Shown here piece after piece: positions 9,501 through 56,606 of a stretch of 64,000 nt of DNA (positions are counted from its first letter, which is position 1; every line of letters starts with the position of its first letter). The stretch covers positions 45,942,001-46,006,000 of the forward strand of contig NC_083288.1 in NCBI RefSeq assembly GCF_963506605.1, given 5' to 3'. A program made the translations under genes and the position numbers. Origin of the DNA: Zootoca vivipara. Its lineage: Eukaryota. The notes below the pieces were generated by a model, which saw only the letters and a list, made by a program, of their open reading frames with translations, was not told the origin of the DNA and did not search any database.

Positions 9501-12106
9501 AGTGGGGAATCAAACTGAGGGAGACCCTTTACTGTAGGCAAGAGGTTATTCCGTCGGACAGCCTAGAGTTTCTTAAGGTACCGGGCCACGTAAGCTGGAA
9601 GGCTCTCCTTACTAAGAAACCCACAAGTAAAAGGGGTTTATTTTTGAGGTGGCAGGAGAAGAGGGTGGGTGTTTTCCCCTCTGAATTCCTGTACCCCATT
9701 TTTGTAGTAGAGAGTGGGACCCATCGTCACACATGCAAAGCATAAGCTGAAGGATAAACAGCATTGCTGTACTTTGCAATGAGATTATTTTGTTGTGAAG
9801 ACGTTACCTGCCAAGGCTGCAGAGACTGAATTTCAATACTTCTACCATATGCCCTTGGTCTTTGCTTGGATTGGGATGAGTAGAAGGTATGCAGAGCATG
9901 AGCCAAAACATAGACAGCATTATATACACTGTAGCTATGGCCTGTCACGTGCATTTCAAAAATACCCGCAGGAAGACTTTCTAGCCTCTCCTCTCCAGTA
10001 CACATGTCTCCATCCATAATAGACATCCCTGGATCTGGAAATAAACAGTCAAATGCTTGCTCCCAGAAGCCCTTGAAAAAACCATCTGCTTGGGTCCTGG
10101 AAGGCTTGATACTCTGGAGAAATTCTGAAAAGTCTGGAAGCTCTCTTGACTGAATTGTGAAGGAAAGTGCACCTTGGAAAAGCTGGAAATCCCAGTTTCT
10201 CTGAGGGCCAGTAGATGTGAAATCTATCTGGGATGTCATAACCCATACCTTTCCAAATGAACCACTTTCCTTATGCCCATGATCATGAAAAAGATTAACA
10301 ATTCTCAGCCAGGCAATTGTCAAAGATTCTCCATAGCAGATAAGGGTTCTGGCCTTGTTATCCGTGAGAGATACATAAATTCTTTCAATTTTATCCAGTA
10401 TTTCATCTACATTTTCCATAGAAACTTGCTCTGGGATTCTTTTTGTGAAGGCTGAACAGATTCCATGCTTGGAAAACAGTGGCTCCAGGGTCTTCAAGAA
10501 ATGTTCCCCCGTGTTATCATCCACAACAAACAGCCCAACCCATGTCCATCTGAAATACTGAAGTAAACGGATAATGCCAATATATTGATGGCTTTCATTT
10601 GGGACCATGCAGAAAAAGGAAAAGCTCTGCAATGCTTGAATCTCTTCTGCAGCAAATGAACCATAGGTGAGCTAAAAGAGAACATAGGTTTATTGCAGCA
10701 ATAAGATAAGATAATTATTTCTGTGCCCATTTTGCTAGATGTATGTGACTTCATAACACAATATTTATTTAAGAACTTTGTGGGTTCCAAAAGAATGACA
10801 ATTAATTTAATTTTTGAGAAATATAAGCGTTTTCCAACATATTTTTTTCTGCTTTACCTAAGCCTGGCAGAATTAATAAAGATGTTCCATGTTGAGTTCT
10901 CAGGTCATGTGAGCAAACTGAACAGGTTTAGGATCCAGCCAAAGCCCCTGGCTCAGTAGCTAAACCATAGCTGAGATGAGATGAGCAAATTATAGTAGCA
11001 TATCTTCAGCTGATCCAGGATTGGGGACTTAACACTCTCTGAACCTGTCTGAGGCCGGAGTTCCTCTGCATCATATGTCACTCATCCCGGAAGATCTTGC
11101 CACAGGATTGCTCACCCAACTCTGCCCTTTTTTTAAAAAAAATAAGGATTCTTTTAATTTGCATTCTCCCTCATTTTCCAAAACACAGATCCTACCTGTG
11201 GGACCTTGTAGAGGGTTAAGACCTCTGCCATATTGATAGATATGCCAGATGTAAGTCCCCCAATGACGGCTATGAGGTTTTCCTGGATATCACATATGTA
11301 GTTGGGGACAAATCTGTGTGATTTGAAGAGCAGGTCCAAAGTGGTACAATAGGTCATCCTTGCATCATAATAGCTGTCATAGATGCGGAACCCAAGTGTA
11401 GCATTGGGCAAGATCTTTTGATCATCGTTGATCTCCTTAATGGCAAACACCAAGGCCAGGATGTGCTGATAGAACTTTGTCACTATACTGCCAATGGAGT
11501 CGATACATTAATACTTTGATTCACACTTAAGCATTTGATACCACCTTTCCTCAATCCTATTCATTTTTGTTAGAGTAGGCTTATATTTCTTGCTGTTTTC
11601 ATTTTTGAAATCCTGCATCATAGTGAAAATTTCTCCTGATCCAATTTAATTTCCTCTAATGCAATTCTATCATCAATATATTTTGTCTTCTCATTTTTTA
11701 TTTTTATGTCGTGAACTCCCCTGTAATCTTTGAATGAAGGGTAGTATACAGATTTAATTAACAACAACAGCAACAGGTATGTGGGAGTGAAGTTGCTGTT
11801 GGATGGGTATCGCTAGCCACTCCTGCTTCACACAAACATGCAGCCTTGTAAAAGACAAGTTTCTTTCATTTAAATAGTGGGGAATATAAGTACTTACTGT
11901 GGAACCTCAAGTAGCTCCTGAGCAGGATCTTCCTTAAATTGAATTTCTGAGGAATGGTAAAAGATCTGAGAAGCAATCCCACCAATCAGGAGGTCACCTG
12001 GCTGGTACCATTCATGTGGAACAGGGATTGGATCACCTCCAGGGCACTGCATTGTATTGTCTTTGCACACAATGGGTAGCTGAAGCAGTAGCAAAAGCCT
12101 CTGCAT
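6519..12106 (-). CDS. V2R gene B, complete, ~871 aa: exons 12106-11898, 11487-11196, 10671-9808, 8669-8448, 7690-7564, 7420-6519
   Basis: Venus-flytrap exons 1-4, Cys-rich exon 5 (CNEHC...[12 protein letters not shown]), 7TM exon 6 ([25 protein letters not shown]). Exons sum to 2616 nt in one frame. Confidence 0.95.
7832..8302. mobile_element. Non-autonomous hAT element, GC-rich
   Basis: TIR cagggcc/ggccctg and 8-bp TSD aatatgaa. A related end fragment lies near 15770-15805. Confidence 0.9.
8965..9731 (+). mobile_element. Probable solo LTR in gene B intron 3
   Basis: tgtgatg...cgtcaca inverted termini and internal AATAAA at 9291. No clean TSD. Confidence 0.5.
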
Positions 12107-12612
12107 AGTTGCAATAAATCTCCTCCTAGGGTGCAGATTCCTTGGTGTTCATATACACCAACTGCCTGACTTTGACTATGTTAAATGTTGCCTCACTCTC
12201 ACAATTCACTTCCTAAGGTGAAACATATCACCTTTGCTTTTAGCATAAGCATAGTTTGAATATATTTTTAAAATAGACAATCCTCCTTTTTTGTTTAATG
12301 CTTGTTATCAATGTGAAAAAGTGGAGTTATGTGTAATCATTATCACAGACTGCCTTCTCACCCCACCCCAACTTCATTTCCCTAATACTTTTTCCAAGCT
12401 GTTTATATACTGTTTTCTAGTGTCTTTGTGAAGGCCTTTTGATATTTGGGTGACTGAACCAATTATTTTGAATTGGATAATTGCAGACGGAGATAATTAC
12501 TCCTTCAGACTTTAGATTCTGAAGTAACTGAAAATAAGTTGCCTTGTTTTTGTAGGAGAGAAAACTTCAGATTTCCCTGAAGATCAAAGCCCTGCAAGAA
12601 AATCAGGACCTG

Positions 12613-14913
12613 GCTTCCGGTTCAGCGCCAGCGCCATCCGGCGGGGTTTGTCTCGAGCTCTGAGGCAACCCGACTTTGTGAGGGGGGGGGGAAGAGCAGC
12701 GAGAGCAACGCTGCGCCCCAAAGAGCCCCAGATTGAGCGTTCTGGGGATGAAGAAAGCTCGGCAGTGCCCCATTTTTGACTCCCTGACCCTTCGGCAGGC
12801 TCTAATAAGAGCTCCAGAGCGGGAAGGGTTGTAGTCGTGGGGGCCATCTTTGAGCGCCATCGTTACCCTCGTGAAGGGAAGCTCCGTACCGGAGGTGGAG
12901 AGCGCTGGATACTTCCCAAGAAAGATTTGGAAAAGGTGGTGACCGTGAGTAAAAGGACTTAAAATTTTCATTGGATTTTAAATTTGGAATGGGGGTGAGA
13001 TTTAAAGAACGGAAGCCGATCTCCCCTCTTTGATTGAAGTAGGAAGCAATCAAAGGAAAATATGCCCGATGCCGGGGAAAGGAAGTTTATTTCTGGAATA
13101 CTTCCAAGGATTGATGAAATATTCTCCCCTCAGAGGCAGGGAAGAGGGGGAGAACTGTTTTAAGACTGGAAAAATACCTGCAATTTGAGTTAATTGAAGA
13201 CGGAAGAGCCTCTGCCTATCCTGAAATCGGCAACCCAGACAGAACAGTGAGCTGATTGTGATGTCACAAAGGAAGGAAAGGAATTAACTTTTAGAGATTT
13301 TTTAAGAGACTGAGCTGAGGAAAATCTAAAAAATTGGATAGTTTAAAATGAAGAACTGTTGCAGCCTGTTTGAAATAGCTATAAAAACTAATGTAACAAG
13401 ATCTGGAATGGATATATTGCATCCAGTTTGCAGTAATTGGAACAGTTGCAATTTGTAACCACTTCCTGTTTCTCAAGCTTTACTCTGCGCTTGGAAAGTC
13501 TGAACCTGCACCTGGGTTCCAGGAGAAAGTCATGAGACTCTTGTGGGAAATTAAAATCGAAATATATAAGACTGAGCAGCAAATGGAAGAAATATATCAA
13601 GATTCACAAAAATAGGACATAAGTAAAGGCATAGTGGCAGAAGACAACAAGATATATGAACTGAACTTTAATATCATTGAAGAACATGAAGAAGTCTTTC
13701 AGGAATTGCAAGAGGAAAAAGATCAACCCTGGATTTGGAATACCCCCCCTTTGGGGGGGGGAAGCAAGAGTCGTTTGAGGGACAGAAAACCCACAAGAAA
13801 AACAGTGTGCAAAGAAGAAGGGAACATTTGGGGGGCGGGGACAGAGGCGTTTGGATTGTAAAACATGCCAGGAAGGGAGTGGGATGAAGGAGGAATGGAT
13901 ATTTTGTTTATTGGGATGCATAAAAAGGATTGAAAATTGGATTGCTGACTCTGGAGCTTGCTGGAATGGAAGGGAATAGCCGTGATCAGGGGAGGAGGAG
14001 GCAAAATTGAAGATAAAAGAGAAATTTAAAAATTGGGAAAGTAAAAAGGATTTAAAATACATGGATATTCTAGGAAGGAAATTGTGGCAAGGGAAGAAAA
14101 GGAATGCTAATTATGCTAGAAGTAAGATGCAGAATTTAAATGAGAATACTAGAAAGATAATTTTTGTAAGATGAATAATTTGTGGGACGGTTGGGTGTTC
14201 CCCCCTCTCCTGTCGGTTGCCTCTGTGCTGGGAGCTCTTGGTGGCAGGGGGGGGGCTTCTGGGGCGGGGAAGACGGGGAGTGGGGAAGGATTCAATTGGA
14301 ATAAGAACCATTTCCTCCCTCCCTTTTTCCTCTAAGGACTCTTCGTGGCAGGGGGAGTCCTGGGGGATGGGGGAGGGAGGGGGTGCAAATTGATAATAAA
14401 AGAGAGATTAATAAAAAATATGGATAGTATGTCAACATAAGATTGGAAAGTTTGGAAATAGATTGGGGGAAATGATGAGAAAATTGCTAAATGATATTCT
14501 AAAATGAAAATCAGAAAGGGGAAGCCTATAAAATAATGTTTATGAAAAAATGAATAGTGATATAAATTATTATTTTTTTCTTTTTTTTCTTTTTGTCTTT
14601 TTCTGTTTTTGTAGTGTATTGTATTTGTAATGTAAGTTTGGATAGATAGTTGGGTGGACACTCGCCTGCATCTCTCCTTGTCATCCTAGAGCCTTTTGGT
14701 GGCAGGGGGAGGCTCCGGGGGGAGGGAGGGAGGGAGGGGTGGGGACAAACCCAATTATAAAATGAATTGCCTTCGACTGCCTACTCTTCAGGGGATTCTC
14801 TCGTGGCAGGAAGGGGCTCGTGGAGGGGGGTTGGAAGAAGGGAGATAATATGTTATGTATGTATATGGTGTTTTTTTCTATTATGCAAAATCAATAAAAA
14901 ATTATTTCAACAA
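12613..14913 (+). mobile_element. Non-autonomous L1-mobilised retroelement (~2.3 kb, HAL1-like)
   Basis: 17-bp TSD aagaaaatcag(g/a)acctg with one mismatch (12596-12612 / 14914-14930); 5' GCTTCCGG CpG-rich head; AATAAA and A-rich end; no RT ORF. Confidence 0.8.
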
Positions 14914-15386
14914 AAGAAAATCAGAACCTGACACAGAGCCATAATCTTACCTAAGGAAACAAATGAGTGCTAAATCCTAAAATGAAACCCACTGTCCAAC
15001 TCCAGTTTTGCAATAAAATTGTAACCTAGAAAGTATTGACATGGGATCAACAAGAGGACCAGTGATACTTGCTGTAAACTAAAAATGTTCCTGCAGTCTG
15101 GTGTGAGCTGTTTTGTTGAGCCAGGTCAAGAATATCAGAACATCAGGCTCATGTAGCCCAGAACTCAGAACTCACAATGTTCAACCATATCCTCACCCAC
15201 AGTAGCCAAGTGTTCTCCACCTTAACCCCTATGCATTTGCCTAACCACCTTTTAAAGGCATTAGAGTTGCTGAGCATCACTATCTCTCACGGGATAAATT
15301 CCATAGTTCAACTTTGTGCTGTGTGAAGAAGCCTTTTACTTTATAAACAAACAAAATGTACTCGCCTTCAGGTCTACAATCTAAAA

Positions 15387-15844: not shown

Positions 15845-17530
15845 TCAATCTTTCTGAAACAATACATGAACCAAGGTAACCGTATTTCAAAATTCATACT
15901 TCATACTTCATATGAACAAGAAAAAAGGGGGGAAAGCAACAATATTCTCCTATAACATATATCATCTTCAACCATCCAACTTTAAGAAAAAAAAGAAGAA
16001 AAAGAAAAAAAAGAATAATTAACAATGAAAATAAGAATAAAAATCAGCATTCCAATATCCTAATTTCATAATTCCATAATAGACCTCCACGAGAATTCCT
16101 TTTTAACGGTTCCTTACATCTCTAACTTAGCAGGTTCTAATCAAATTTCCCTCTTCTTATTTTTTTTAATAATTACATTTTTTCCTTAAATTCCACTGTC
16201 CAACTTACATTTCTAACCTATATAATTTTACACCCTTAATTCCTAACCTACAACCTACACAGTTGCTTATAATCCTCTTCAAATATCAATTCTACAATAT
16301 TTTTAGAGTAAATTCTAAACTTCTTCCACTCCTCTTCCATCTTCTCCTCTCCCCGGTCGCGTAGCCTTCCGGTCAGGTCAGCAAGTTCCATATAGTCCAA
16401 CATCTTCATCTGCCTGTAGGTATCTTCAGTGTCTTCCAGTACTTTGCTAATAATACTCTCGCCGCAGTTGTGGCATACAAAAACAAATTCACATCTATAC
16501 TAGGCAATTCTTTTCCTACTATGCCCAATAGGAAGGATTCTGGTTTCTTAAGAAAGGTGTTCTTCAACACTCTTTTCATTTCATTATAAATATTTTCCCA
16601 GAAATCCTTGACTAATGGGCATGTCCACCACATATGATAGAATGTTCCTTCCACCTTTTTACATTTCCAACATTTATTATCCTGGTTATGGTATATCTTA
16701 GCAAGTTTCATTGGCGTCAAATACCATCTATACATCATTTTCATCATATTTTCTCTTAAAACAGTGCATGCAGTAAATTTCATGTTCTTTTCCCACATCT
16801 TTTGCCCAATCTATCATAACCTTTTTTTGTCTGTTCGTCTTTCGTGTGCCACTGCAACAATAAACTATACATTCTGGAAAGATTCTTTGTCTTTGGATAT
16901 AACAATTCTGTCTCCAGCTTGGATTTTTCTAATAGAAAACCATTTTTCTTATCAATTTTATACAACTCATTTATCTGGTGGTATTGGAGCCAGTCATCTA
17001 AATTGCTTCTTAACTGCTCGTAAGTCTTTAACTTTAACTGGTCTCCTTCCTCCACCAGAATATCTCTATAGGCCATCTGGTCTCCATGTTTAGCTTTTTT
17101 CTAGCCTTAGCTAGCGGTGAAATCCAAAGAGGTGTCCTTCTCTCTAATATCTCTTTATACTTATTCCAAATGTTTATCAGCGATTTCCTAATTATATGAT
17201 TTTTGAAACCTTTGTAGCTTTTAACCTTGTCATACCATAGATAGGCATGCCATCCAAATACATTATTATATCCTTCCAAGTCTAAGACATCTGTATTTTC
17301 TAATAAACACCATTCTTTCAACCAGCAAAAGGCAGCTGCTTCATAGTAAATGCTAAGATCTGACAGGGGAAAACCCCCTCTATCCTTACTATCTGTCAGC
17401 AATTTATATTTAATTCTGGGTTTTTTCCCTTGCCATATAAACTTTGAAAGTGCCTTTTGACACTCTTTAAAGCATTCCACCTTGTCTTCAATTGGCAATG
17501 TTTGAAACAAGAATAACATTTTTGGCAATG
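15845..17530 (-). mobile_element. 5'-truncated, frameshifted L1 (ORF2 C-terminus and 3'UTR)
   Basis: LPKMLFLFQTLP, FIWQGKKPRIK and CWKCKKVEGTFYHMWWTC are homologous to the ORF2 ending at 55656. Ends are approximate. Confidence 0.9.
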
Positions 17531-17964
17531 AGGCATGATATTTTTGATCATGCAAATCTGGAGTCAAGGTCCCATATCTCATCTGCTTGGGGACCAGAGA
17601 AGACTTCTGCTCACAAATGGAAGACAAGAACTAACATGTTTTCTACCATAAGGGTCACTTAGCATCAAAACACCGAGAAAGTAATTTCCCCTCTCTCACA
17701 CACACAGAGAGAGTTATTCACAGCACTGCCATTTGCTCATGTGGTCAAAGCTCCAGAGACTTTCAAAAGGGTAGGGGAAAAAACAATCAGTAAGTAAGTC
17801 TGAAAGTGATGATAAATTAACACCAGTGCCATGGGAAGTTGGGATTAAATGCAAGAGGCAAGCAAGGACATCTCTGACAATTTTCTCCTATTGCCTTGTC
17901 AAAGCAAGTTAGATCGAAATAGGTGCAGGGCAGCTTATATTTAGAGAGAAATTTTGAGGAAAGC

Positions 17965-26935: not shown

Positions 26936-27019
26936 ACAGAAAGAGACAGAGAGATAGAGAGAGCTGGGTCTCTCAGTGAGATATGTGAATCGCTTTGCAG
27001 CTCCATTTCTATATCTCTA

Positions 27020-28861
27020 CTAGCTGACCCGGCCACACGTTGCTGTGGTTCTTTCCTGTGATTCTCCCCCCCCCCTGTCATGATCCATGACGTATCCTGC
27101 CCCTCCTCCCTCCACCACGGCTCATCCCTGTGTTTCGGTAGGATACCCTTCCCTCTGTTGTCCCTGGGGAGTGTTGGCCCCTCCCCCCTGTATCTCCATA
27201 CCTTGGCCCCTACCCTTCGAAAAGGAACTGTTAGGTTCTGGGTTCCATTTCCCAGTATTTACTTTTGTCTGAGCCCTCTGTTGTCCCCTCCCCCCTGTGT
27301 CTCCCTACATTGGCCCCTGCGCACGCATTGTGAACATTTCTATATATTGCGATTAAGGATCGGGAGTGATGATGCGCCCTGGGACCCAGAGAACTACTTA
27401 AAGAATCCCAACCCGGGAAGGGGGGTCAAATAGCAAAGTCCCATAGCCCCGTAGCAACAGACAGGCCCAGACAGAAGGAGGGGGGTCATATGGGCCACTT
27501 GGCGCTGGCCTCCGAATCTAAAGGGGGCCTCGGTCAGCATATTCACAATCAGTAAAATGATAAAAGTGACAAAAGGGTTAAAAACAGGGCCACATTATCT
27601 ACCTGGCCCGGGCCCTGTAAGGGCCTGGCAACAGAAGGCACGTTCTGAAGTACCCAAGTTGTTCAGTTCCATAAAAAACCCAGGAAGTGGCAAGGGGAAG
27701 GTAGGGGATTGAAAAGGGGGGGGGAGCTGCAAATATCTGAGGACTTAAACTGGGGAGAGAAAATAAGACATAGCGATAGGCGCAGTTCTGGAGGGCCCCA
27801 AGGAAGAGGTAAGGCTGGACGCGTAATGAAAAATAAGACATCCCCTGAAAATACGCTACGTCAGCCCATGACCAATTTGGGCTCCTCCTCCCCCCACCTC
27901 CCACCCAGGGCTCCATTTGGGATAGTATTTAAAGGGCTGTAGACCTGAGGCCTAGTCTGTAAAATGGAGCCTTGGCCTCCTGTTTTACAGGATCTCGTGG
28001 CAGAGGCGGGGTTTGTGGCATAGCTGCCAAGTTATCCCCTTTTTTAAGGGATTTTCCCTTATGCTGAATAGGCTTCCTTGCGAGAAAAGGGTAAACTTGG
28101 CAGCTATGGTTTGTGGGTGTGGCGCGTTGTTGTGCCTAATCCCTGTGACTGCCCCCACGTGTCCCGATCCAAGATCTATTCAGTTTGTCCTCCCCCCCCC
28201 CTCCATGACCGGCGTATCTCATGACGTTTTGAAGGATGGTATTTATTTTTGTTATCTTGTGGATTTGGGGGGGGGGGGTAGTGTTGCTAAATGGTAAAGT
28301 AAAAACCCCTTGCCATTCAGGGGCCTACATAAATCAAAAGCCGTGCTGCATTATGTGCCACACCCCCCCCCAGGCAGGCCCCTACCTCCACTTGGAAATG
28401 TTGGTTTTTTGGTGGGGTTTTTTTGGTGGGGGTAGTGGTGCTAAAAGGTAAAGTAAAAACCCCTTGCCGTGCCCCCAAGTGTGTTGCTGTGGGTCCCCCC
28501 CCCAGGCCTGTCAGGGGCCTACATAAAACAAAAGCCTAGTGGTTGGTCTGATAATGCCCACCTTGGTGTTTCAGTTGCTTGGTTGATGATGATGTCATTT
28601 GGTTTGTGGATGTGGCTTAGATTTCACAGGAAGCGAGGGGGTGTACTGTGGGAGGAATTCCACTTGAGGGCGCTGTTTGACTTGGTGGAAAAGCAGGTCT
28701 AAACCTGCCGAGGTGTGTGATTTGAGGTCTTTCTTGTCCCCTGCAACCCTCGGGGAGTGGCCTGGATCGTTGTGTCAAAATTTCAGGACGATCGGTCAAG
28801 CGGTTATGGAGAACATAGCGGCCAACAATTTCAAGATTTTTACATTTTTATATAAATAAGA
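27020..28861 (-). mobile_element. Non-autonomous Helitron (1.84 kb)
   Basis: Minus strand runs TC...CTAG with a subterminal ccac/gtgg hairpin. Inserted between A and T with no TSD; empty site atctcta|tatgtc near 39457 and 49003. Confidence 0.9.
28019..28108. mobile_element. 90-bp hAT MITE nested in the Helitron
   Basis: 15-bp TIR catagctgccaagtt and 8-bp TSD gtttgtgg. Confidence 0.92.
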
Positions 28862-33000: not shown

Positions 33001-33899
33001 GTATTCACCATTAGAGAGGATAAAATTGTGTGGCACAGATATTTTAATGAGGTATTTTTTCTGGCTCTATCCTGGAGAACCCATTGTATTGAATTATGAA
33101 GTATGGTGTAATCTTTTCTCCACAACCTGATATGGCAACGGCACATGAAGCTCTAGAGTGAATTCTATTTTTCCTTTCACATTCAGAAATCAGATATGGT
33201 TTTAGGACAGCGAAAATTATTACTCCCACACCGGGCACAAAGCAGAGAGGGCTCCCAGTAAGCACTTGCCCAGCTATGGGAAGGTTGATGCTCTTTCCCC
33301 TCCTTAGCCTGTTGATGCTCTTTCCCCTCCTTCACTCTTGGGTGTGTGGGTATTATGCTGTCATGTCTTCTGGGCTCCATTTGACATTATGGCTAATGCC
33401 AGTATCAATACATTTTATATAGGTTCTTCTTATCCCTGTGATTCACCCCTCCCTGTCCTGATCCATGACCTATTCTGTTCTCTACCCCCCCCCCAGCTCA
33501 TCCCTGTGACTTCCCCATATCTGTCCCAACCTATGACCTATTATGCCCCCTCCTCCCCCTACCCTGGGTTATCCCTGTGATTTTCCCCACCCTGTGTCAA
33601 TCCATGACGTTTACCGCCCCCTCCTCCCCACCCCCGGCTTATCCCTGTGATTCCCCCCTTCCTGTACCTCCATTCGGCCTAGTCTGTAAAGGCTTCAGCC
33701 TAGTATGTAAGTGGGAGCTGAGGTGTTGAGTGTATGTACTGAAACATGGGGTTTCGTGGGTCTTACCTGGCATAGGCAATGCATCTGTCTTAGCACACTT
33801 CATAAGATCCCTCAGATATTTGCTTGGGACATTGTGTCTGAATTTGAACAAAATCGGTCAAGCAGTTTCGGAAAAAAGTGGAGACCCACCCACATGCTC

Positions 33900-33947
<48 letters not shown>

Positions 33948-34635
33948 GTCCTTGCAATTCAACAGTTCTATAATCTGCTAGCTGGCCCTGCCACGCGTTG
34001 CTGTAGCTTATCCGTGTGATTTCTCCCACCCTCTGCTGATCCACAATGTGCCGTGCCCCCTCCTCCTGCCACCCCCCGCTTAGGCCTGTGATTCTCCCCT
34101 CCCTGTCCCGATCCATGACCTATTCTGTTACCTCCCCCCTGGATCATCCCTGTGACTCCCCCAAATCTCTCCCGACCTATGAACTATTATGCCCCCTCCT
34201 CCCCCTACCCCGGGTTATCCTTGTGATTTCCCCCACCCTGTGTCAATCCATGACGTTTACTGCCCCCTCCTCCCCACCCCCCGCTTATCCCTCTAATTCC
34301 CCCCTCCCTGTACCTTCATTCGGCCTAGTTTGTAAAGGCTTCAGCCTAGTATGTAAGTGGGAGCTGAGGTGTTGAGTGGGAAGGTTTTATAGGTGCAGTA
34401 CCTGTGTACCTCTTTTGCAATCTCTTGTGGCTTCTTTTTCCCAGCATGCACTTTCGTCTGAGTTGTGTGTTCTGAAACACAGGGTTTTGGGGGTCAAACC
34501 TGGCGTAGGCGATGCATCTGTCTTAGCAAACTTTATAAGATCCTTGGGACATTCACTAGGAACATTGTGTCCAAATTTGAACGCAATCGGTCAAGCGGTT
34601 TTGGAGAAAAGTGGAGACCCACCCACATGCCATTT

Positions 34636-34684
<49 letters not shown>

Positions 34685-37600
34685 CTCATTACAGTGTATT
34701 TGCATTTTAGATGTGAAAGAGTTGGAGCTCAATTGTAGAACATATGTTTTCCATGCAAAGGGTCCCATGTTCAGTCTTTAGCATCTCCAGGAATGACTGA
34801 GGGAAAACCCTGCCTGAAATTCTAGAGAACTGCCGGCGCAAAGTTTCAACATTATTGTGTCAATGGTCTGAGATACTATCTGACAACGCTGTAATGTCAT
34901 CTGTGTTTCTGCTCTTTAAAAAACAAATCATATTCCACTTAACTGCAATAGTTTCTAAGTGTCAGGTAGGTAGCCGTGTTGGTCTGAGTCGAAGCAAAAT
35001 AAAAAAAATTCCTTCAGTAGCACCTGAAAGACCAACTAAGTTTTTATTTTGGTATGAGCTTTCGTGTGCATGCACACTTCTTCAGATACACTTGAAACAG
35101 AAGTGTCAGACCCTTATACAGAGGGTGGTGGGGGTGGGTGGGAATGGGTGATGGCAGACAGCCACCCAATCTTAAACAACTCCTCACCCACAATAATACA
35201 ACCACCAGACTTAACATGGACACTGGTACCAGAGCCTGCAATAAACCCAGATGCCTACTTTGCTGCCACATACACCCGGACAACATCATTACTGGCCCCA
35301 ACAACATCCAACATACCATCTCAGGACTATTTAATTGCTCATCTTCCAACATTGTGTATGCCATCAAAAGCCAACAGTGCCCTTCAGCTCTCTATATTGG
35401 ACAAACAGGCCAGACCCTATGCCAAAGGATAAATGAACATAAATCTGACATCAGGAACCATAAGACAGAGAAACCAGTAGGAGAACACTTCAATCTCCCA
35501 GAACATTCTATACAAGATCTCAAAGCAGCTGTTTACAGAGAAATTTCAGGAACAGACTGGAAAGAGAAGTTGCTGAATTGGAACTCATTTAAAAGCTTAA
35601 AACCATGGAGCCACCTGGGATGAATAAAGGCATCGGATTCTTATCTCATTATGCATGATCAAGCTTTCTTTAGCGCCTCAGCCCTTGCTCCCCCCCCAGA
35701 ACTAATTGCAGTAACCAGCAGTCGTTAACAGCCATCTACAGGTTTACCACTCCCATCAGCCCATCACCCATTCCCACCCACCCCCACCACCCTCTGTGTA
35801 TATATATAAGGGTCTGACACTTCCGTTTCCAGTGTATCTGAAGAAGTGTGCATGCACACGAAAGCTCATACCAAAATAAAAACTTAGTTGGTCTTTAAGG
35901 CGCTACTGAAGGAATTTTTTTATTTAGTTAATAAGTGGTTTACCAAGATATCATACAAAAAGAATCAGTGCATACTATAAAATCAACCACATTAGCAAGA
36001 CCACTGGAATCAAACAAGAACAACTCTATGTGTTGGAAGTTCAAAAGGGGCATTATGGGAATTCTGCTACTAGTAAAAAACACACTCGGTCATGGCAGGA
36101 TGGAATAAAGTAGAATCAGGAATAAATGGGGGGGGGAGCGGGAAATGAAATATTGGCTATTCAAGTTCTGCCAGATCATAGTACCATCCTCTGACATTTA
36201 AGGTCGCCCTGATGACAATCATGATAAGAACAAAAGCTTGAATCTGTATTACATTCAACATGATTTTGTCATTCCTGCATGTATTCTCCTGTACAATTTC
36301 AGGCAACATACCTACAGGCACATCTATGAGATCTGCCATGATAATGACAATTTCACATGAGCCAACAGGAGAGGAGAAAGAGAATACATTTTACTGTACC
36401 TCAATCAAGTTACACTGGCAGAAACATCCTGCACATACCATAGATAATTTTTTTTCATTTGAATGTGCTGTACGGCTGTCTCCATTGTTATGGTACTTCA
36501 TCAGTAAGTGAGAAATATTTTTTTTTTCCAATAAACAAATTCTTTAAACAAAAACCAAAACCAAAAATGTATATGAACAGGTGGTTCCCCTTTCTCTGTG
36601 TAATGAATGTTGGCACCCTGGTCATCAGAAGAAAAGGAAGGAGGGTGAGAAGTTTTGCTGCTATGATTGTGCTCCATGTCCAGATGGGAAAATTTCCAAC
36701 GAAACTGGTAGGTCATGTCATCTTGCAAAGGGTAACAATAATTTGCTGTATTCAATGAATGGTCAGTAAGTTGAATCTCCCCCACCCCACCCCACCCCAC
36801 CCCACCCATATTTCAGATATGGAAGACTGTTTCAAATGCCCAGAAAAAGAGTATCCAAGCAAGAATAGAAGTCAATGCCACCCCAAAATCATACATTTTT
36901 TGTCTTATGAAGAACCTTTAGGCAAAGGCTTAGCTTCAGCTACGGCTTCTTTTTCTTTCATCACAACCTTGGTGTTTGCTACCTTCATTAAGCATAGAGA
37001 TACCCCCATTGTCAAAGCCAACAACCGGGACCTCACCTACATTCTCCTGGTCTCCCTCCTGCTCTGCTTCCTCTCTTCATTGTTATTCCTTGGCCAACCT
37101 GGGAAAGTGACCTGCCTTCTCCGACAACCAACGTTTGGAATCATTTTCTCAGTGGCTGTTTCTTGCATGTTGGCCAAGACCACCATTGTTTCTCTAGCAT
37201 TCATGGCCACAGAACCAGGATCAGGAGTGAAGAAATGGATGGGGAAGAAAGTGTCATATTCAATTGCTGTTTCCTGTTCACTTGTTCAAATGGGTTTTTG
37301 CACAGTGTGGCTCTCAACCTTTCCCCCATTCCCTGATTTAGACCTGCATTCAGTGAATGAAGAAATCATTGTACAGTGTAATGAAGGGTCTGTCACCATG
37401 TTTTATTGTGTCTTGGGTTACATGGGTCTCCTGGCCACCAGCAGCTTCATTGTGGCATTCCTTGCCCGCAAGTTACCTGACAGTTTTAATGAAGCAAAAT
37501 TCATTACATTCAGCATGTTAGCATTTTGCAGTGTTTGGCTGTCCTTTGTTCCAACTTACCTGAGCACCAGAGGGAAAGGCATGGTGGCTGTGGAGATCTT

Positions 37601-43600: not shown

Positions 43601-46600
43601 AGTATTCACCATTAGAGAGGACAAAATTGTGTGGCACGGATATTTTAATGAGGTATTTATTCTGGCTCTATCCTGGAGAACCCATTGTATTGAATTATGA
43701 AATACGGTGTAATCTTTTCTCCACAACCTGATATGGCAATGGCACATGAAGCTCTAGAGTGAATTCTATTTTTCCTTTCACATTCAGAAATCAGATATGG
43801 CTTTAGGACAGCACAAATTATTACTCCCACACTGGGCACAAAGCAGAGCGGGCTCCCAGTAAGCACTTGCCCAGCTATGGGAAGGTGCTGGGAGGATTCT
43901 GGAAGGGTCACAGAATCTCCAATCTCATCCCCAAACCCTAGTTAGCACTTGCTCAGCTTGGGAAGGGATCTATGAGCCTGTTGATGCTCTTTCCCCTCCT
44001 TCACTCTGTATCAATACATTTTATATAAGTTCTTTTCTTTTCTTTTTTACATTGCATTATGTCAACTTCATGGATGTCATGATATACCAAAATAAACCAT
44101 AGAAAATGTTCGGATTGGCACACACCATTACACAAAGATTGAGTCTTCCTGACAACATTATCTTAGTGAGCTGTCTTGCCTGTCTTCCTCCTTTGTCCCA
44201 TTTCTTTGCTCTTGTAATGCAGTATCTCAGCAATGAAATCTACACCACCATATCACTTCAGCAGAAATTGGTTTGTACTAGATGACCCATATTGTCTCTT
44301 AGGATCCTTTCAATTCAACAGTTCTATAATCTGCTAGCTGGCCCTGCCACGCGTTGCTATGGCTTATCCGTGTGATTTCTCCCACCCTGTGCCGATCCAT
44401 GATGTATCCTGCCCCCACCCCCAGCTTATCCCTGTGATTTCCCCCCTCTCCTCCCCCCAATCCCCAGCTTATCCCTGTGATTCACCCCTGACTATCCTGA
44501 TCCATGACCTATTTTGTTCTCTACCCCCCCGCTCATCCCTGTGAATCCCCCAAATCTGTCCCAACTTATGACCTATTATGCCCCCTCCTCCCCCTACCCT
44601 GGGTTATCACTGTGATTTTCCCCACCCTGTGTCAATCCATGATGTTTACCGCCCCCTCCACCCCATCCCCGGCTTATCCCTGTAATTCCCCCCTCCTACC
44701 CCCACCCCTGGCTTATCCCTGTGATTCCCCTCTCCCTGTACCTCCATTCGGCCTAGTCTGTAAAGGCTTCAGCCTAGTATGTAAGTGGGAGCCGAGGTGT
44801 TTAGAGGGAAGGTTTTAGAGGTGCAGTAACTGTGTAGCCACTGCTAAGGGGCGCTCTTTTGCAATCTCTTGTGGCTTCTTTTTCTCAGCATGCACTATCA
44901 TCTGAATTTCGTGTACTGAAACACGGGGTTTTGGGGGTCTTACCTGGCATAGGCAATGCATCTTTCTTAGCACACTTTATAAGATCCCTCAGATATTTGC
45001 TTGGGACATTGTGTCTGAATTTGAACGCAATCGGTCAAGCGGTTTCGGAGAAAAGTGGAGANNNNNNNNNNNNNNNNNNNNNNNNNNNNNNNNNNNNNNN
45101 NNNNNNNNNNNNNNNNNNNNNNNNNNNNNNNNNNNNNNNNNNNNNNNNNNNNNNNNNNNNNNNNNNNNNNNNNNNNNNNNNNNNNNNNNNNNNNNCATGT
45201 GAAAGAGTTGGAGCTCAATTGTAGAGCATATGCTTTCCATGCAACAGGTTCCATGCTCAGTCTTTAGCATCTCCAGGAATGACTGAGGGCAAACCCTGCC
45301 TGAAATTCTTGAGAACTCTAAGTTTCAACATTATTGTGTCAATGGTCTGAGATACTATCTTACAACACTGTAATGTCATCTGTGTTTCTTCTCTTTAAAA
45401 AACAATTCATATTCCACTTAACTGCAATAGTTTCTAAGTGGTTTACCAAGATATCATACAAGAATAATCAGTGCATACTATGAAATCAAATCACATTAGC
45501 AAGACCACTGGAATCAAACAAGAACAACTTTATGTGTTGGAAGTTCAAAAGGGGCATTATGGGAATTCTGCTTCATGTAAAAAAAAAACACAGTCATGGC
45601 AGGATGGAATAAAGTAGAATCAGGAATAAATGGGGGGAGCGGATTTTTTTTTCCTTTTCAAATTTTGGCTATTTAAGTTCTGCCAGATCATAGTACCATC
45701 CTCTGACATTTAAGGTCACCCTGATGACAATCATGATAAGAACAAAAGCTTGAATCTGCATTACGTTCAACATAATTTTGTCATTTCTGCATGTATTCTT
45801 CTGACTATTTTTAGGCAACATACCTACAGGCACGTCTATGAGATCTGCCATGAGAATTACAATTTCACAAAAACCAATGGGAGAAGAGAAACAGAATACA
45901 TTTTACTGTACCTCAAACAAGTTACACTGGCAGAAATATCCTGCACATACCATAGATAATTTGTTTTTTCATTTGAATGTGCTGTACGGCTGTCTCCATT
46001 GTTATGATACTTCATCAGTAAGTGAGAAATATTTTTTTTTCAATAAACAAATTCTTTAAACAAACAAAAAACAAAAATGTATATGAACAGGTGGTTCCCC
46101 TTTCTCTGTGTAATGATTGTTGCCACCCTGGTCATCAGAAGAAAAGGAAGGAGGGTGAGAAGTTTTGCTGCTATGATTGTGCTCCATGTCCAGATGGGAA
46201 GATTTCCAACCAAACTGGTAGGTCATGTCATCTTGCCATAACAAAGGGTAACAATAATTTGCTGTATTCAATGAATGGTCTGTAAGCTGAATCTCCCCCA
46301 CCCCACCCCACCCCATATTTCAGATATGGAAGACTGTTTCAAATGCCCAGAAAAAGAGTATCCAAGCAAGAATAGAAGTCAATGCCACCCCAAAATCATA
46401 CGTTTTTTGTCTTATGAAGAACCTTTAGGGAAAGGCTTAGCTTCAGCTACGGCTTCTTTTTCATTCATCACAACCTTGGTGTTTGCTACCTTCATTAAGC
46501 ATAGAGATACCCCCATTGTCAAAGCCAACAACCGGGACCTCACCTACATTCTCCTGGTCTCCCTCTTGCTCTGCTTCCTCTCTTCATTGTTATTCCTTGG

Positions 46601-48938: not shown

Positions 48939-50731
48939 AATAAAGAGCTGGGTCTCTCAGTGAGATATGTAAATCGTTTTGCAGCTCTATTTTTATATCT
49001 CTATATGTCAACAATTTCCACATTATGCATAATTTCAAGGAAAACCTTACTGTAGGTAGTTTACCTTGGAAAACTTTAATATTTTCCCCTAAAGCTCTGT
49101 CCTGTATTGGAGAGACCACTCCATTCCAGTCTCCCATAAGGAAGCCATTTTCATATGAAAAGTCTAGCAACCTGCCCATGAGTCCTTCATAAAATATAGA
49201 TTCCTCTCCATTTCGTGCATATATGTCTACAACCAAAGTTTTATTCCCTTGGATATTAACTTAACTCCCACCCCAACATTCACCATTTTAATGAATCAAT
49301 CATTTTTATTGTATATAGACCAAAGGCCTTTACAACAGACAACAGGGAATAAAATGAATTTTTATGTAAAATCATACAATGTAACCTCTAGCAGTATATA
49401 ACATAAAAATAAATTTTCCCCCATCAGTGCTGCAGATATAAATTCATCACGTGGCATCCCATTACATTTTTTATTTTTAAAAAATACTACTTTAATGTAT
49501 ATTGACTATTGAACATCAATCCACTAACAGTTAAAACACAAATATTTGCTTATTTCAGTACAGTATCCAGAAATAGCATGAATGTAGAAATCATGAAATG
49601 TAATAATTAACCAGACTTCCGGTCTGGGTGCGCTAGACGACGAGTCGCTGAAAGACGGAGCTCTGAAAAGTGGAGCTCGTTTTTCGAGTCGGTGGTCTGT
49701 CCGGAGGGGGGTTTTGGCACCGCAAACCCGCCCAAACGAAGGGGAGAGTACGGGTCTCTCACCGAGTTAAAAGACGAACCAAAAAAGGGCGTTAAGAGGC
49801 AGAACTTCGTCCCGGCACCGTGGGTGGAGGAGACGGAGAGGAGCCAGACGCCATAGAACGAGGACGCTCCGACGAGGTGCCCGAGGACGCGCAATAGCTA
49901 GCACCCAAGACACACCAACCAGAGGAAAAATCAAGATAACCGACCTGTGAGAAAGCAACAAATATCCGAACGTGCTGATTAAGAAAACTCCAGGCGGAAA
50001 GCAAGGTTGGTGAACTATTTTACAACCGCGGAGGGATACTGCTACTAACGGAACTCTTTTTAATATCTATACTCGCAGTGGGAGTGAATACGTTACGGTT
50101 AAAGAGCCAAAAATAAAGAGAAACGGAGGCGAAATTGAGGTATCGTGGCTAGTTTCCAGAGGGAGAGAGAAGATAAATAAATAAATAAATAAAAAACCTA
50201 ACAACGCTAAAAGGGTATTTTGAGAAGGATAAAAGGAAGCGACTAATAGAAGAGAAAAGAGGTGAAAGGAGGCGAGGGGGGACGTAAAACGCGGAACAAG
50301 GGAAAGCAAGGGAAGGAGGTGCTTGGGAACTATAAAACGGTAAAACCAGGCAAGAAAAAAATGGAGGAGGAGATCTAATAAGAACTGCATAAATTGCCAA
50401 GTCACGACTTCCGCCTTCTTCACAGAGGTAGAAAAGAAACGAAAGGAGGGGAAGGAGAATAAAAGAGCCTAAGAATAGCGACCCCTGCTGGCGAGTTAAA
50501 AAATTGCACAAGAGTGAACAAAAAAAGAAAAGAAAAGCAATGCAGCCTTGAAACCAAGATCTTACCCCCCTCCCCCCTGGTGTTTGGACATTTCAAAAGT
50601 AATAACTATGGACTTTTAATGAACCTTTAATTTCAGGAAGAAGGAAACTCCCAGTGATTGAACAGGGGCAAAAGAAAAGAACAAACCTCATAAGAGGGGA
50701 AAAGAAAAATTAAATCTAAAATAAAGAAAGG

Positions 50732-51637
50732 ATGGGAAGCAAGAAGAACATGGATCTGAAAGCAAGGAGACAATCCACCTCAGGTGATGGTGATGCATTG
50801 TCCGATATAAAAGAACTCATCACCGAGATGAACAAATCACTAGGTGAAAAACTAGACGCTGTAGAAACAAAAATTGAAAGTAATTCAAAGGTGATAATGG
50901 AGATGACTGGGCAAATCAAAGAGCTATATGGAAAGAACAATGAGCTTGATAAAGCAGTTAAGGACTTAAACACTAAAATGCAAAAGCAGGAAGAATCCAT
51001 TTAAAAAGTCATAACAGTCAACAAAGAGATAAAAGAAGCACAAGAGGATGAAGACGTGGAACGCCAAAAAATTAAGAAAATGCAGGAGGATCTTGCTGAT
51101 CAGATCGCTCTGCTGGAGATGAAGCAGAAATCGTTGTGGCTGAGATTAAGAGGGATTCAGGAAACGCCGAATGAACAAATTGATGAAAAGATCATCAAGG
51201 AGCTGGCAAAATGGCTCAAAGTGAAGGAGGAAGACCTAGCTTATGACGTAGACAAAATATATAGGATCCGATTAGACAAATCAAAGAACAGGAGAGGCCC
51301 AGGAGACTGCATGATCATTTTAAATTCCAGATTATTGAAAGACAAAATTCTACAAAAAAAGAAACAAGAGGAACTAGTGATTGATGGAAGAATGGTGGCC
51401 ATCTTTAAAGAGATCCCCAAAAGATTTGTTCTTAAACGACAAAAGTATAAAGAACTGACAGAAGCCCTAGGAAAGAGAGGCATATGGTTTATCTGGGAAT
51501 ATCCGGAGGGCCTGACCTTCTTTTATAAAGAAAGAAGAAAAACAATCAGAACAAAGGATGAAGCTGAAAAATTTCTGAGAAGACTGAAGAATGAAGTGGG
51601 AGAAGAAGAAGAAGGGGAAAGAGGCAGTGAAAGTTAA
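50732..51637 (+). pseudogene. L1 ORF1 with one in-frame stop (TAA 51002-51004)
   Basis: ORFs 50732-51004 and 51056-51637 share a frame. Coiled-coil followed by LRLRGIQE and WEYPEGL, as in L1 ORF1. Confidence 0.88.
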
Positions 51638-51902
51638 GGGAACAGAGGGTAGAGATTAGAAATCTAGGATTAAGAGAAATTATGTTGTATTAAAAAGGTT
51701 TTCTTTCTTTTTTTTTCCCAGGGGGGGGGGGGAGTAAGGGAGGGACAGGTTGGATTTCCGTTGTAGGATTGAACCTCGCTTTCATCTCTTCTTTTTTCTT
51801 TTTTTTTGAAGTATCTTGAGATTTTGTATATGGGAATATTTTTAGGAGTAGCCAACAGAAAGTAAAATTTATAATTGTGTTTATTAAACTAAACAATAAA
51901 GA

Positions 51903-54900
51903 ATGAGATTTAATTTGATTTCCTGGAATGTAAATGGATTGAATAAGAAAAGCAAAAGAAACAAGGTGGTACATTTATTGAAAAAGAGATCATGGGATAT
52001 AATATGTATTCAAGAAACACATATTTCACAAAAATATGAAACGTTATTAACAAAATGGGAAATTGGGAAATGAATTCGTTTCAGCTGATAAAAAGAAAAA
52101 AAGGGGAGTAGTCACGTATGTGAATCCTAAATTAAAAGCAGAAAAAATATTCCAGGACAATGAAGGGAGAATAGTAGGAGTTAAAATTGGATTGAGTATT
52201 GGAGAAGTAATAGTAGTCAATGTCTATGCTCCAAACGGATGTAAAGTAGAATTTTTTTAAAAAGTAGAGAAGCTGATAGGAGAAAACGTAAAAGAAGAAG
52301 GAATCATACTGGCAGGGGATTTGAATGGTATCATCAAACCAGATCTAGATAGAACAAATGCGGGAAGAAAGAAAGGAGGAAAATTACCCGGAAGCTTCCA
52401 ACAGTTGATTACAAATTTTGAAATGAAGGATATTTGGAGGGAAAGGAACCCAGGGGTGAAGAAATTTACCCATTATTCGGATGCAAAAAAATCCGCAGCC
52501 AGATTGGATGCAATATGGCTGACAAAAAGTCTACTGCCAGGAATAATAGAGTGTGATATATTGCCAAAACTTATCTCTGACCACAATCCAATTATGATTA
52601 AATTGGAAGATCAAAAGGAACATATAAAAAGATGGAGATTGGATGAAGATATTTTAAGGGATGAGGCCTTTGTAGAAAAATTAAAATTATCATTAAAAGA
52701 ATTTTTTGAAATAAATATTAGGGAAGAGACAAAATTAACAACAATCTGGGATACCAGTAAAGCATTCCTGAGAGGGCTTTACATACAACAAAAAGGAAGG
52801 AAACAAAGAGAAAGAAAAGAAAAAATAGAGGAGATTAAAAAGAAAATTGAAGAAAAAGAAAAAGAGTTAGGGAGAAATCCAAAAAAGGGAAAATTGGCAG
52901 ATCAAATTAAAATATTACAAAAAGAATTGGAAAATGTGGTAGACCAGGAATTGGAGAGAAAGTTGAGATGGAATAGACAAAGATATTTTGAATCTGGAAA
53001 TAAGGCCGGGAAATTCCTAGCCTGGCAATTGAGGAAAAAGCAAAATGAAAAAATCATAACAAAAGTTAGAGAGGGAGAAAAATGCTGGACAAAAATTGAG
53101 GATATACAAAGATGTTTAATGGATTTTTATAAAAATTTATATAAGGGAGAAGTAGGAAAGGAATTGGCAATAAAAAAATATCTAGCGAAATGTAAGGGAG
53201 AATTAATAAAGGAAGAAGAAAGGGAATTCTTAAATAACCCAATATCAAAAGAAGAGATAAGTATGGCAATAAAGAAATTAAAATTGGGAAAATCGCCAGG
53301 AACGGATGGATTGGGGAGCAAACACTATAAGATATTAAAAGAGGAATTATTGGAAATATACCAGAAAGTAGTGAATGAAGCTTTAAGAAAGGGAAATATT
53401 CCTCAATCCTGGCAAGAGGCATATATAACTCTACTGCCGAAAGAAAAAGGGGGGGAAATATCGGTATCAAATTTTAGGCCAATATCCCTCCTAAATATTG
53501 ATTATAAAATATATGCAAATATATTGGCAGATAGATTAAAGATAGTGTTGAATAGAATAATTGGCCAAAATCAACAAGGGTTCCTTCCAAAAAGGAAAAT
53601 AGCAAACAATATACGAATGCTCTTGAATATATTTGAATTCCTGGACTGGAACCCCGGGAAAAAAGCGGCTTTTGTATTTTTGGATGCGGAAAAGGCTTTC
53701 GACAGCCTATCGTGGGAGTTTATGAGAAGTGTGATGGGGAAAATTGGTATAAGGGGTAATTTTGCAGAAGGTGTGGGAGCAATATACAGAAAACAAACAG
53801 CCAAATTAATTGTAAATGGGAGAATTACGGAAGAGTTTGAAATTAGCAAAGGAACGAGACAGGGTTGTCCGCTTTCGCCCTTGCTGTTTATTTTATCAAT
53901 CGAATGCTTATTGAATGGAATTAAAGATGATGAAGAAATTAAGGGAATCAGAGTAAGAAAACATATAATAAAGGTGAGGGCGTTTGCGGACGACGTGGTG
54001 GTCATGTTAGAAGACCCGGAAGAGTCAGTAATTAAATTAAAAAAGAAGTTAGAGGAATTTGGCGAAGTATCAGGCTTTAAAGTAAATGTAAATAAGACAA
54101 AAATTATGACGAAAAATATAAGAAAAGGAGAGATAGAAAATTTGGAAAAATTGACAGGCTGGCAAACAGTTAAAAAAGTGAAGTATCTGGGCATAATGAT
54201 GACTACAAAAAATATAAATTTATATGAGAATAATTATTTAGAATTATGGAAAGAATTAAGAGAAGATCTGGAAAGGTGGAAAAATTTATTTTTATCAATT
54301 TCAGGAAGAATAGCGGCGATAAAAATGGTGGTGTTGCCAAAGATCTTGTTCCTTTTCCAAACTCTCCCGATAATAGGTAAAAAAACGGTATTTGATGATT
54401 GGAGAAAAATTTTAAGTAAATTTATCTGGGCAGGGGAGAAACCTAGAATTCAGTACAAACTATTAACAGAAATAAAAGAAAGAGGAGGTTGGGGTGTACC
54501 TGATCTGAGACTGTATTATGCTGCAGCGGGGTTTTGTTGGATCAAAGATTGGCTTACGCTGGAGAATGAAGAACTCTTAGATGTAGAAGGATTCCGCAAT
54601 ATTAAAGGTTGGCATTCATATTTATTGATGGAGCAAAAAGGGAACCCAAGAGAATTCTCAGATCATGTAATTAAAAAATCTTTGTATCAAATTTGGCAAG
54701 AATTCAAAAATTTAGTAGAGCCACAAAGCCCTTGGTGGGCATCCCCTGTGGAAATGACGGTAATGGGTAACATCAGGAGAGAGGGTAAGTGGCCCACCTA
54801 CAAAGATCTGATAATAAAGGAAGGGGACAGTCTGAATTTGAAACCATATGAAGAAATAAAGACATATTGCTCAAGCTGGTTGCATTATAATCAGATACAA

Positions 54901-55656
54901 AGTCTATTTAAAACACATATGAAAATTGGCTTCTCCAAAAAGGAATCTAAATTGCAAGAAATAATAATAAATAATGACAAGAAAATATTGGGGAAAATGT
55001 ATAAATTTTTATTAGATTGGGAATTAAAAGATGAATTAACCAAAAAGGTAATGATAAATTGGGCTACAGACATTGGAAAACCAATTTTAGTAAATCAGTG
55101 GGATAAATTATGGAAATTAGATACAAAATTTACAGCCTGTGTAACAATAAAAGAAAATATATTAAAAATGTTCTATAGATGGCATATAACCCCGGAGAGG
55201 ATTGCTAAATTTGATAGATCAGGGGATAACAAATGTTGGAAGTGTAGAGAAAAGACGGGGTCCTATTACCATTGTTGGTGGACATGCCCTAAGGTGGCAA
55301 AATTCTGGAATGATGTATATGAAAAATTAAAGAAGATGATAAAACATACATTTGAAAAAAGACCAGAACTATTCCTTTTAAGTATGGTCCCGGTAGATAT
55401 ACCAAAGGATAGAATAAATATTCTACTATACGCCTGTGCGGCAGCAAGGATACTGATTGCTTCAAAATGGAAAGAAGAAAAGGTACCGACAGTCCAAGAA
55501 TCGTTAGAAAAACTAATAGAGTATCTAAAATTGGCGAAACTAACGGCAATAGTAAGAGATGTACCTAAGCGCAAAATAATAGAAGAATGGAAATATGTAC
55601 AAAATTATCTGGAAAAGGAGAGTATAGAAAACAATATAGTAACGTGTCTAGAATAG
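51903..55656 (+). pseudogene. L1 ORF2 (APE endonuclease, RT, CCHC); one frameshift near 52050 and one stop at 52258-52260; last 1111 codons open
   Basis: ISWNVNG, IQETH, NVYAPN, GDLN, SDHNP (EN); FRPISLLN, LDAEKAFD, QGCPLSP, FADD (RT); CWKC...HCWWTC. Confidence 0.95.
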
Positions 55657-56606
55657 AGATATAAAAGGAGAGGGGAAAAGACCAGACAGTAGAAAAAATT
55701 AATAAAGGAAGGAAAGAGAAATAGCAGGAAAAGTGATCAGACAAAGGGAAGCGTGTTGTAAAAAGTAGGAAGAAATCTTCCTCTTCCTTTTCTTTTTTCT
55801 TTTTTTCTTTTTTATCTGCTTTTTTACTTACCTTTCTACTCTTATGTTGTGGATTCGCTGTTTTGCTCTTTTTGTTTGAATTTTCTTTCAATGTTGGATA
55901 TGATTTATAAGATTTATTTTGAGTTATTGAATCTTTATGTTTGAATGAATGGATTAGATAGGTATGAGTTATAAGGTTATATGATTTATATAATTTAGTT
56001 AAATTTTATGTTTTGTGTGAATGGATCTGACATGTATGAGATATATGATTTAAGGATTTGTAAATTTTTAAAAGATTAATAAAGTATATTTTTAAAACTT
56101 AAAAAAAAAATGTAATAATTAACCATACATGAGGTATAAATTACACTTTTCGATTAATATGAAAAACGATGTGTTCAGTCCGGCATGATATTTTTGATCA
56201 TGCAAATCTGGAGTCAAAGTCCCATATCTCATCTGCTTGGGGACCAGAGAAGACTTCTGCTCACAAATGGAAGACAAGAACCAACATGTTTCCTACCATA
56301 GGAGTCACTTAGTATCAAAACACTGAGAAAATAATTTCCCCTCTCACACACAAAGTTATCCACAGCACTGTCATTTGCTCAGGTGGTCAAAGCTCCAGAG
56401 ACTTTCAAAAGGGTCGGGGGGAAAACAGTCAGTAAGTAAGTCTGAAAGTGATTATAAATCAACACAAGTGCCATAGGAAGTTGGGATTAAATGCAAGAGG
56501 CGAGCAAGGAGAACTTTGACAATTTTCTCAAATTGCCTTCTCAAAGCTTGTTAGAAGGAAATAGGTGCAGGAGGGCTTATATAGAGAGAGAAACTTTGAG
56601 GAAAGC

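Follow-up and report, generated by a model that had tools for sequence, protein, structure and literature searches.

We report here that a whole non-autonomous retroposon of ~2.3 kb, found at 12612..14913 (+) in a stretch of 64,000 nucleotides (nt) of the Zootoca vivipara genome (contig NC_083288.1; hereafter the window), carries in its 3' untranslated region (UTR) two pairs of predicted hairpins whose loop is near-fixed as GUGG(C/G)AG across the copies of its family. That these hairpins are a real, selected RNA structure is in our judgment very probable, and it is likely that the loop is read by a protein. We further propose, with our confidence evenly divided, that the loops may form a two-site docking platform for a conserved RNA-binding protein of the host, which would aid copying of the element by the L1 protein ORF2p. 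The module is undescribed in the literature searched and in Rfam, where 16 weak matches were obtained, none near the gathering score and none to tRNA, 7SL or 5S RNA; a first-pass annotation, made from the letters of the window, had likewise recognized no described motif.

Hairpin structure and constraint on the loop

The four hairpins of the window copy lie on the + strand at 14199..14286 (32 predicted pairs, 9 of them G-U; loop GTGGCAG at 14241-14247), 14309..14385 (33 predicted pairs, 9 G-U; loop at 14345-14351, 104 nt after loop 1), 14661..14743 (31 predicted pairs, 11 G-U; loop at 14699-14705), and 14768..14843 (27 predicted pairs; loop at 14803-14809, 104 nt after loop 3), the last one being weakened in this copy. 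The first-pass annotation had placed all four loops correctly, and the three double changes it described between hairpins 2 and 3, as well as the mismatches in hairpin 4, are present. Its layout of a 7-nt loop between 10-nt arms was, however, too short, because folds in wider windows give each hairpin 76-88 nt with 27-33 predicted pairs, of which 8-11 are G-U. Stretches of pyrimidines and runs of G do stand before and after the hairpins as it noted, but they are not separate features: they pair with each other as the two outer arms of one predicted stem. In hairpins 1 and 3 the loop is at least 9 nt long, since the innermost closing is G-G. Shuffle z scores for hairpins 1-4 are -2.5, -5.3, -1.9, and -1.5, so that hairpins 3 and 4 are weak taken alone, and in the fold of the whole UTR of this copy hairpins 1-3 form and hairpin 4 does not.

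The evidence for selection comes from the comparison of copies across the 1.44 Gb genome. Searches returned 737 candidates with the 3' part of the element (40 of them scored), 1093 with its 5' part (40 scored), and 1308 with its protein (150 scored). A covariance model trained on a set that included the four window hairpins finds only these four in the 64 kb (E 1e-11 to 7e-8; next match 0.07), and a stem plus loop pattern has 950 genome matches versus 5 for the reversed control, including matches in much more remote lineages, where the start and the loops are the same and the open reading frame (ORF) is related. After removal of 7 rearranged or cut-off copies, the + strand folds better than the - strand in 175/175 distinct units, as expected of the + strand RNA structure first suggested. 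An exchange of arms is penalized by 2.9-3.9 kcal/mol when the units are diverged copies of one hairpin, and by 4.7-11.4 kcal/mol when the arms come from different hairpins. The covariation anticipated by the first-pass annotation is clearest in hairpin 4 (26 sequences), where 91.9% of positions are paired versus 86.4% after shuffling (0/500 shuffles as high), 11/24 pairs are doubly changed, and opposite C-A pairs are avoided (0.077 vs. 0.192); in hairpin 3, whose G-runs align badly, 8/21 pairs are doubly changed.

A tree built from non-hairpin columns allowed changes inherited through active source copies, that is, those on internal branches, to be distinguished from changes at the tips (44 copies and 88 pairs, 5/49 four-hairpin copies with unrelated upstream sequence having been dropped). 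Pairing was kept in 79/92 of the internal-branch changes and in 52/95 of the tip changes (Fisher 3e-6), and 9 double changes were found on the tree versus 1.3 under random re-pairing (0/300). Internal-branch changes per column amount to 0.04 in the loop, 0.63 in the stem, and 0.83 in the remaining UTR, placing the loop ~20-fold below the UTR. The loop is therefore near-fixed rather than invariant, as had been claimed: a loop-masked profile gave 153 matches in 74/81 copies, comprising 117 GTGGCAG, 25 GTGGGAG, 4 register shifts, and 7 single changes, and two lineages have hairpin 4 fixed for the GTGGGAG form, which has 93 genome matches. Some lineages carry both pairs and others only the upstream or only the downstream one, and at least one pair is present in almost every lineage sampled; a late duplication giving rise to hairpins 1-2 was rejected, since all four occur in deep lineages and the pattern is better explained by loss of one pair or the other. 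Within a pair the median loop-to-loop distance is 100 nt (n=142), a spacing that may be set by geometry or may simply follow from the length of the stem plus the linker. Taken with target-site duplications (TSDs) at 34/36 full-length copies with both ends in view, the tree test and the shuffles bear out the earlier suggestion that selection acts on a reiterated RNA module, here in the 3' part of a retroelement of L1 type.

A protein that stayed on the RNA during reverse transcription would be expected to leave 5' truncations at the hairpin apex. In a discovery set, 9/21 TSD-bounded 5'-truncated copies start at -16..+12 of a loop where 1.9 are expected, a post hoc count from the set in which the pattern was first noticed; the apex window was set on it as -14..+9 and then widened to these limits. 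An independent set was anchored on the last hairpin, and 19/90 loci entered it after exclusion of those above 1.5 kb, without a TSD, with no poly(A) signal found or with disagreement between TSD and homology, and of 5 duplicates of the discovery set; 5/19 start at -16..+12 (1.6 expected, P=0.018). No start among 40 fell in the G-arm at +13..+44, where ~4 are expected (0/19 in the independent set, 1.9 expected), and one lies at +45, the sample being small. Such apex stops fit a bound protein, fold-back of the cDNA or a cut. Among ~180 reads from another copy in RNA run X9, 89/173 first mates begin at 14693/14694, which is 5-6 nt before loop 3, and 13/35 begin at 14703, in loop 3. On a young copy RNA reads are sparse, with a depth of at most 6 inside the element and no intron-like joint.

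The retroposon family and its window copy

Full-length copies are mostly 2.2-2.4 kb long, each with only a short ORF and no reverse transcriptase encoded. They start with G(G/A)CTTCCGG and end in AATAAA plus an A-tail. A poly(A) end together with a TSD is an established mark of L1-type insertion. Some copies encode proteins that are 98% identical, so the family is young in part, and the proteins of diverged lineages are only ~30-40% identical to each other. An ORF of 130-165 amino acids, running from a conserved start through a conserved (R/K)KG(V/E)G-stop, is intact in 44/81 copies. Its pairwise ratio of nonsynonymous to synonymous changes (dN/dS) has a median of 0.44 (135 non-independent pairs from 17 copies) and of 0.32 at the N-terminus, and is 0.48 in frame versus 0.58-1.09 across the five other frames. 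The small ORF is under purifying selection, hence the family is coding, contrary to the first description of the element as non-coding.

No homologues of the ~130-amino acid protein were found in Pfam, among 5.8 billion proteins of 71-228 amino acids or among 1.84 billion representatives. Compared with ~15 ORF1p sequences of one L1 clade of this genome it gave an HHalign probability of 0.1% (E 0.73), and the best hidden Markov model scores against ORF1p (E 0.003-0.02 in a tiny database) are at the level of any coiled coil. AlphaFold predicts with low confidence one long helix at residues 10-55 (mean predicted local distance difference test, pLDDT, of 56), and the conserved C-terminal tail is basic and aromatic, W-x-x-K-x-x-(R/K)KG(V/E)G-stop. 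A predicted complex of the N-terminal 60 residues with two ORF1p coiled coils scored 0.02. No sense ORF2 stands beside the retroposon in 60 loci matching the stem plus loop pattern; one unrelated fragment lies 2.6 kb off. Among individual loci, L227 (G000:C1:36157700-36164700) holds an internally deleted copy of 664 nt with the 5' start, TSD and hairpin loops and no ORF, which still moved; in L094 (G000:C3:41850300-41853450) a 5'-truncated L1 has inserted into a family copy, and the target duplication is unusually long (~95 nt); L082 holds another L1 fragment; and L226 and L231 (C1) are different family members with near-identical target sequences, probably within one repeat.

The window copy is bounded by a 16-nt TSD, with one mismatch between its 5' (12596..12611) and 3' (14914..14929) copies. 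It opens with the L1-like start GGCTTCCGG (12612..12620, +), the first letters of a GC-rich 5' UTR in which a splice-donor-like GTGAGT occurs at 12946-12951; an acceptor-like stretch lies at ~13520 ahead of the family's ORF, and no spliced joint was seen in the RNA reads. The ORF is broken in this copy (13502..13887, +): its start codon is gone, an in-frame stop stands at 13613-13615, and the final codons are shifted to another frame. Between the two hairpin pairs lies a conserved block, ATGAAAATCAG...GGGAAGCC (14504..14526, +), followed by a T-rich tract at ~14570-14635. This block is kept in distant lineages. It resembles the letters just ahead of the poly(A) signal, and also the GGAAG motif that in the 3' UTRs of autonomous L1s precedes the T-rich tract. 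The element closes with an AATAAA signal (14893-14898) and an A-rich tail (14893..14913, +).

The retroposon is surrounded by a cluster of V2R vomeronasal-type receptor genes (642-62047, -). It stands in the upstream region of one of these genes, antisense to it and ~460 nt from its first coding exon (11894-12148, -). A 5'-truncated L1 with the 3' part of ORF2 and UTR is found on the opposite strand 1 kb downstream (~15900-17630, -), and a full-length L1 at 49613-56110 (+) starts with GACTTCCGG and has a 15-nt TSD; its ORF1 contains one stop, and its ORF2 frame is open over a long stretch. A separate GC-rich repeat family with tandem units of 40-70 nt occurs three times in the window (~27000-28800, 33400-34750, and 44300-45300).

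What may read the hairpins

In the docking mechanism that we propose, the element would be transcribed from its L1-like 5' end, the small protein would be made from this RNA, and two identical loops on long G-U-rich stems, should they fold in vivo as predicted, would be presented to a protein. Bound at the loops and presumably staying there during reverse transcription, this protein would improve capture of the RNA by L1 ORF2p, a benefit in the competition for ORF2p that may be likened to that of Alu, which gains from its stem-loop and the host SRP9/14. We favor a host reader over the element's own protein, since lineages with such diverged proteins all have the same loop, and over ORF2p, since the sampled L1s lack it. 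For the same reason it appears doubtful that the loop recruits L1 proteins directly, recruitment of such proteins being one of the roles suggested at first: none of 20 autonomous L1 loci, all of one clade, carries the hairpin module in sense, and the two matches found belong to a family copy inserted antisense inside the L1 of locus L188.

Several observations weigh against this docking proposal. The contact of ORF2p with a stem is largely sequence-independent and adjoins the A-tract (PMC10830416), and the last stem ends ~50 nt before AATAAA here and ~300 nt before it in some lineages. Mobilization by L1 we infer from the ends of the copies only. Three window hairpins reach only z -1.7 against arm-wise shuffles, hairpin 3 has no avoidance of C-A opposition (0.44 vs. 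0.46), and the re-paired nulls keep pairs at a mean of 0.77 and a maximum of 0.87 versus 0.86 observed, a high baseline that is largely compositional because C/U stands opposite G. As to the truncations, starts over the whole hairpin are not enriched in the independent set (7 vs. 5.2 expected), 2/5 of its apex cases combine a short TSD with extra letters at the 5' end, and fold-back of the cDNA accounts for apex stops with no protein at all. The read pile-up comes from one other copy in 1/3 runs, whose reads may come from either strand, the other two runs being sparse, and it may be a library effect. Moreover, folding with quadruplexes allowed in ViennaRNA prefers the G-quadruplex in 37/37 units of hairpin 1, 55/60 of hairpin 3, 9/32 of hairpin 2, and 12/46 of hairpin 4.

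This last result would favor a hairpin/G-quadruplex switch, in which the C/U arm masks the G-tracts and controls stability, translation or copying while the loop binds a remodeling factor. A canonical quadruplex motif is indeed present in 36/37 units of hairpin 1, 28/32 of hairpin 2, and 59/60 of hairpin 3, in line with the capability ascribed to these hairpins by the first-pass annotation. Quadruplexes in the human L1 3' UTR are credited with stimulating retrotransposition in PMC10830416, where Sahakyan 2017 is among the references. They also stop ORF2p in vitro (PMC10830416), and a dominant quadruplex should therefore produce truncated copies that start on the 3' flank of the G-tracts; such starts were not seen, in the small numbers given above for the G-arm. 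Hairpin 4 mostly lacks the motif (6/46) and yet has the best covariation, and a quadruplex alone needs neither a complementary arm nor a fixed loop, so we consider the switch improbable. Only slightly easier to credit is an element for RNA stability, export or 3'-end control with no direct part in ORF2p capture. An intronless-type retro-RNA with a long UTR would suit such a role, as would the position of the hairpins, which many lineages have ~90 and ~190 nt ahead of AATAAA; on the other side, the distance to the poly(A) signal varies, as seen in lineages with the upstream pair only; sequence alone cannot separate it from the docking proposal.

A reading by the element's own ~130-amino acid protein, which would bridge its RNA to L1 ORF1p/ORF2p as a self-encoded adaptor with operator hairpins, deserves more weight than these, though we hold it to be rather unlikely. 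The ORF and the hairpins co-occur, with few exceptions, in all deep lineages with an ORF match; the N-terminal helix and the basic/aromatic tail are conserved; the frame is under the purifying selection described above; and the ORF-less copy L227 is what action in trans would produce. On the other hand, the protein has no RNA-binding fold or homologue that we could find, and it is mostly acidic and fast-evolving whereas the loop is fixed. Cleavage of the ~30-bp stems near the apex, by a Dicer/Drosha-like or other RNase, into small RNAs or defined ends strikes us as very unlikely. The stem length is close to that of a pri-miRNA, which has a stem of ~35 bp, genomic starts fall at +2..+10, and RNA fragments end near loop 3; however, cutting would destroy the element's template, and the free drift of the arms around a fixed loop is the reverse of a miRNA. 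A pri-miRNA cluster was accordingly rejected, as there is no conserved mature arm or known family and the best Rfam miRNA match scores 29 bits versus a gathering score of 63. As for a neutral origin, in which a segment with C/T-rich and G-rich parts was duplicated and folds through its composition, the high compositional pairing baseline and the strong purine skew of the region speak for it, but it is largely refuted by the 20-fold constraint on the loop, the double changes, the contrast between internal branches and tips, the arm-swap penalty, and the fixed spacing. At the DNA level, a CTCF site on the - strand was rejected, since 1/175 units lies within one mismatch and the variable positions coincide with the consensus core.

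Relation to known elements and meaning of the module

HAL1, HeT-A, and Ag-Sponge are one-protein non-autonomous long interspersed elements (LINEs) that parasitize an autonomous LINE (PMC5753468, PMC5786205). The retroposon resembles them in having no reverse transcriptase or endonuclease, one ORF, an L1-type start, a poly(A) end, and a TSD; unlike them, it has paired loop-conserved hairpins, which the available parts of the same sources do not mention (PMC5753468, PMC5786205). It also differs from HAL1 in that its protein has no detectable similarity to the sampled L1 ORF1p, and because its ORF fails this homology test it is not classed as HAL1. The autonomous L1s of the genome start with GACTTCCGG, and the retroposon shares with 21 L1s only the start motif in its first bases, low-complexity tracts, and the general UTR plan; it is possible that the parental autonomous L1 belongs to an unsampled clade. 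A short interspersed element (SINE) was rejected on the lack of any tRNA, 7SL or 5S match in Rfam and on the purifying selection of the ORF.

A functional parallel may be Alu with SRP9/14, likewise a folded RNA module upstream of an A-tail with proposed access to ORF2p via a host protein; a template stem-loop binds human ORF2p, which has been proposed as the reason why Alu outcompetes L1 RNA (PMC10830416). In contrast to Alu, the retroposon has no 7SL homology, has long simple stems in pairs, and encodes a protein. A loop of 5-7 nt near the 3' end is shared with the 3' stem-loops of stringent LINE/SINE partners and of human L1 and Alu, which are single stems of 8-10 bp common to the partner LINE, unlike the paired ~30-bp stems found here (PMC5135761). 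Among the sampled L1s, a stringent-type stem-loop common to a partner LINE is rejected by the absence of the module in sense. Lizard L1 UTRs are C/T-rich, as are those of the L1s sampled in the Zootoca genome, with two anole L1 families having a G-rich tract as exceptions, and the available part of that study mentions no such hairpins (PMC5381506). Quadruplex-capable G-runs in the 3' UTR are a likeness to mammalian L1 (PMC5381506, PMC10830416), the difference being that in the retroposon a complementary arm and a fixed loop accompany each G-tract. Both loop variants, GGCAG and GGGAG, fit NGNNG, the site of the LIN28 zinc knuckle in pre-let-7 loops (PMC11011352), which we take as a lead only, because this consensus is too short to count as evidence. 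Neither GUGGCAG as a word nor a description of the family was found in the literature searched; Repbase, Dfam, subscription journals, and supplements lay outside the search, and the family may thus be catalogued in Repbase or Dfam.

A bolder and rather unlikely extension is that this lizard L1 parasite has a two-part capture system, made of the hairpin pair and either an orphan adaptor or a co-opted host zinc-knuckle protein. If so, a clamp on the hairpins would deliver the RNA to L1 ORF2p and defeat its cis-preference, the apex truncations would be the footprint of that clamp, and such a system would be unknown from Alu, SINEs or HAL1. The family offers natural variation to exploit, with a fixed 7-nt loop set against diverged proteins, covarying stems, young near-identical copies, and lineages with two and four hairpins. 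Loop, stem and ORF are separately mutable, and the module is a candidate new RNA family. L1 prefers its own transcript, and the ways in which non-autonomous RNAs overcome this are understood chiefly from Alu; this family would provide a second, independent case.
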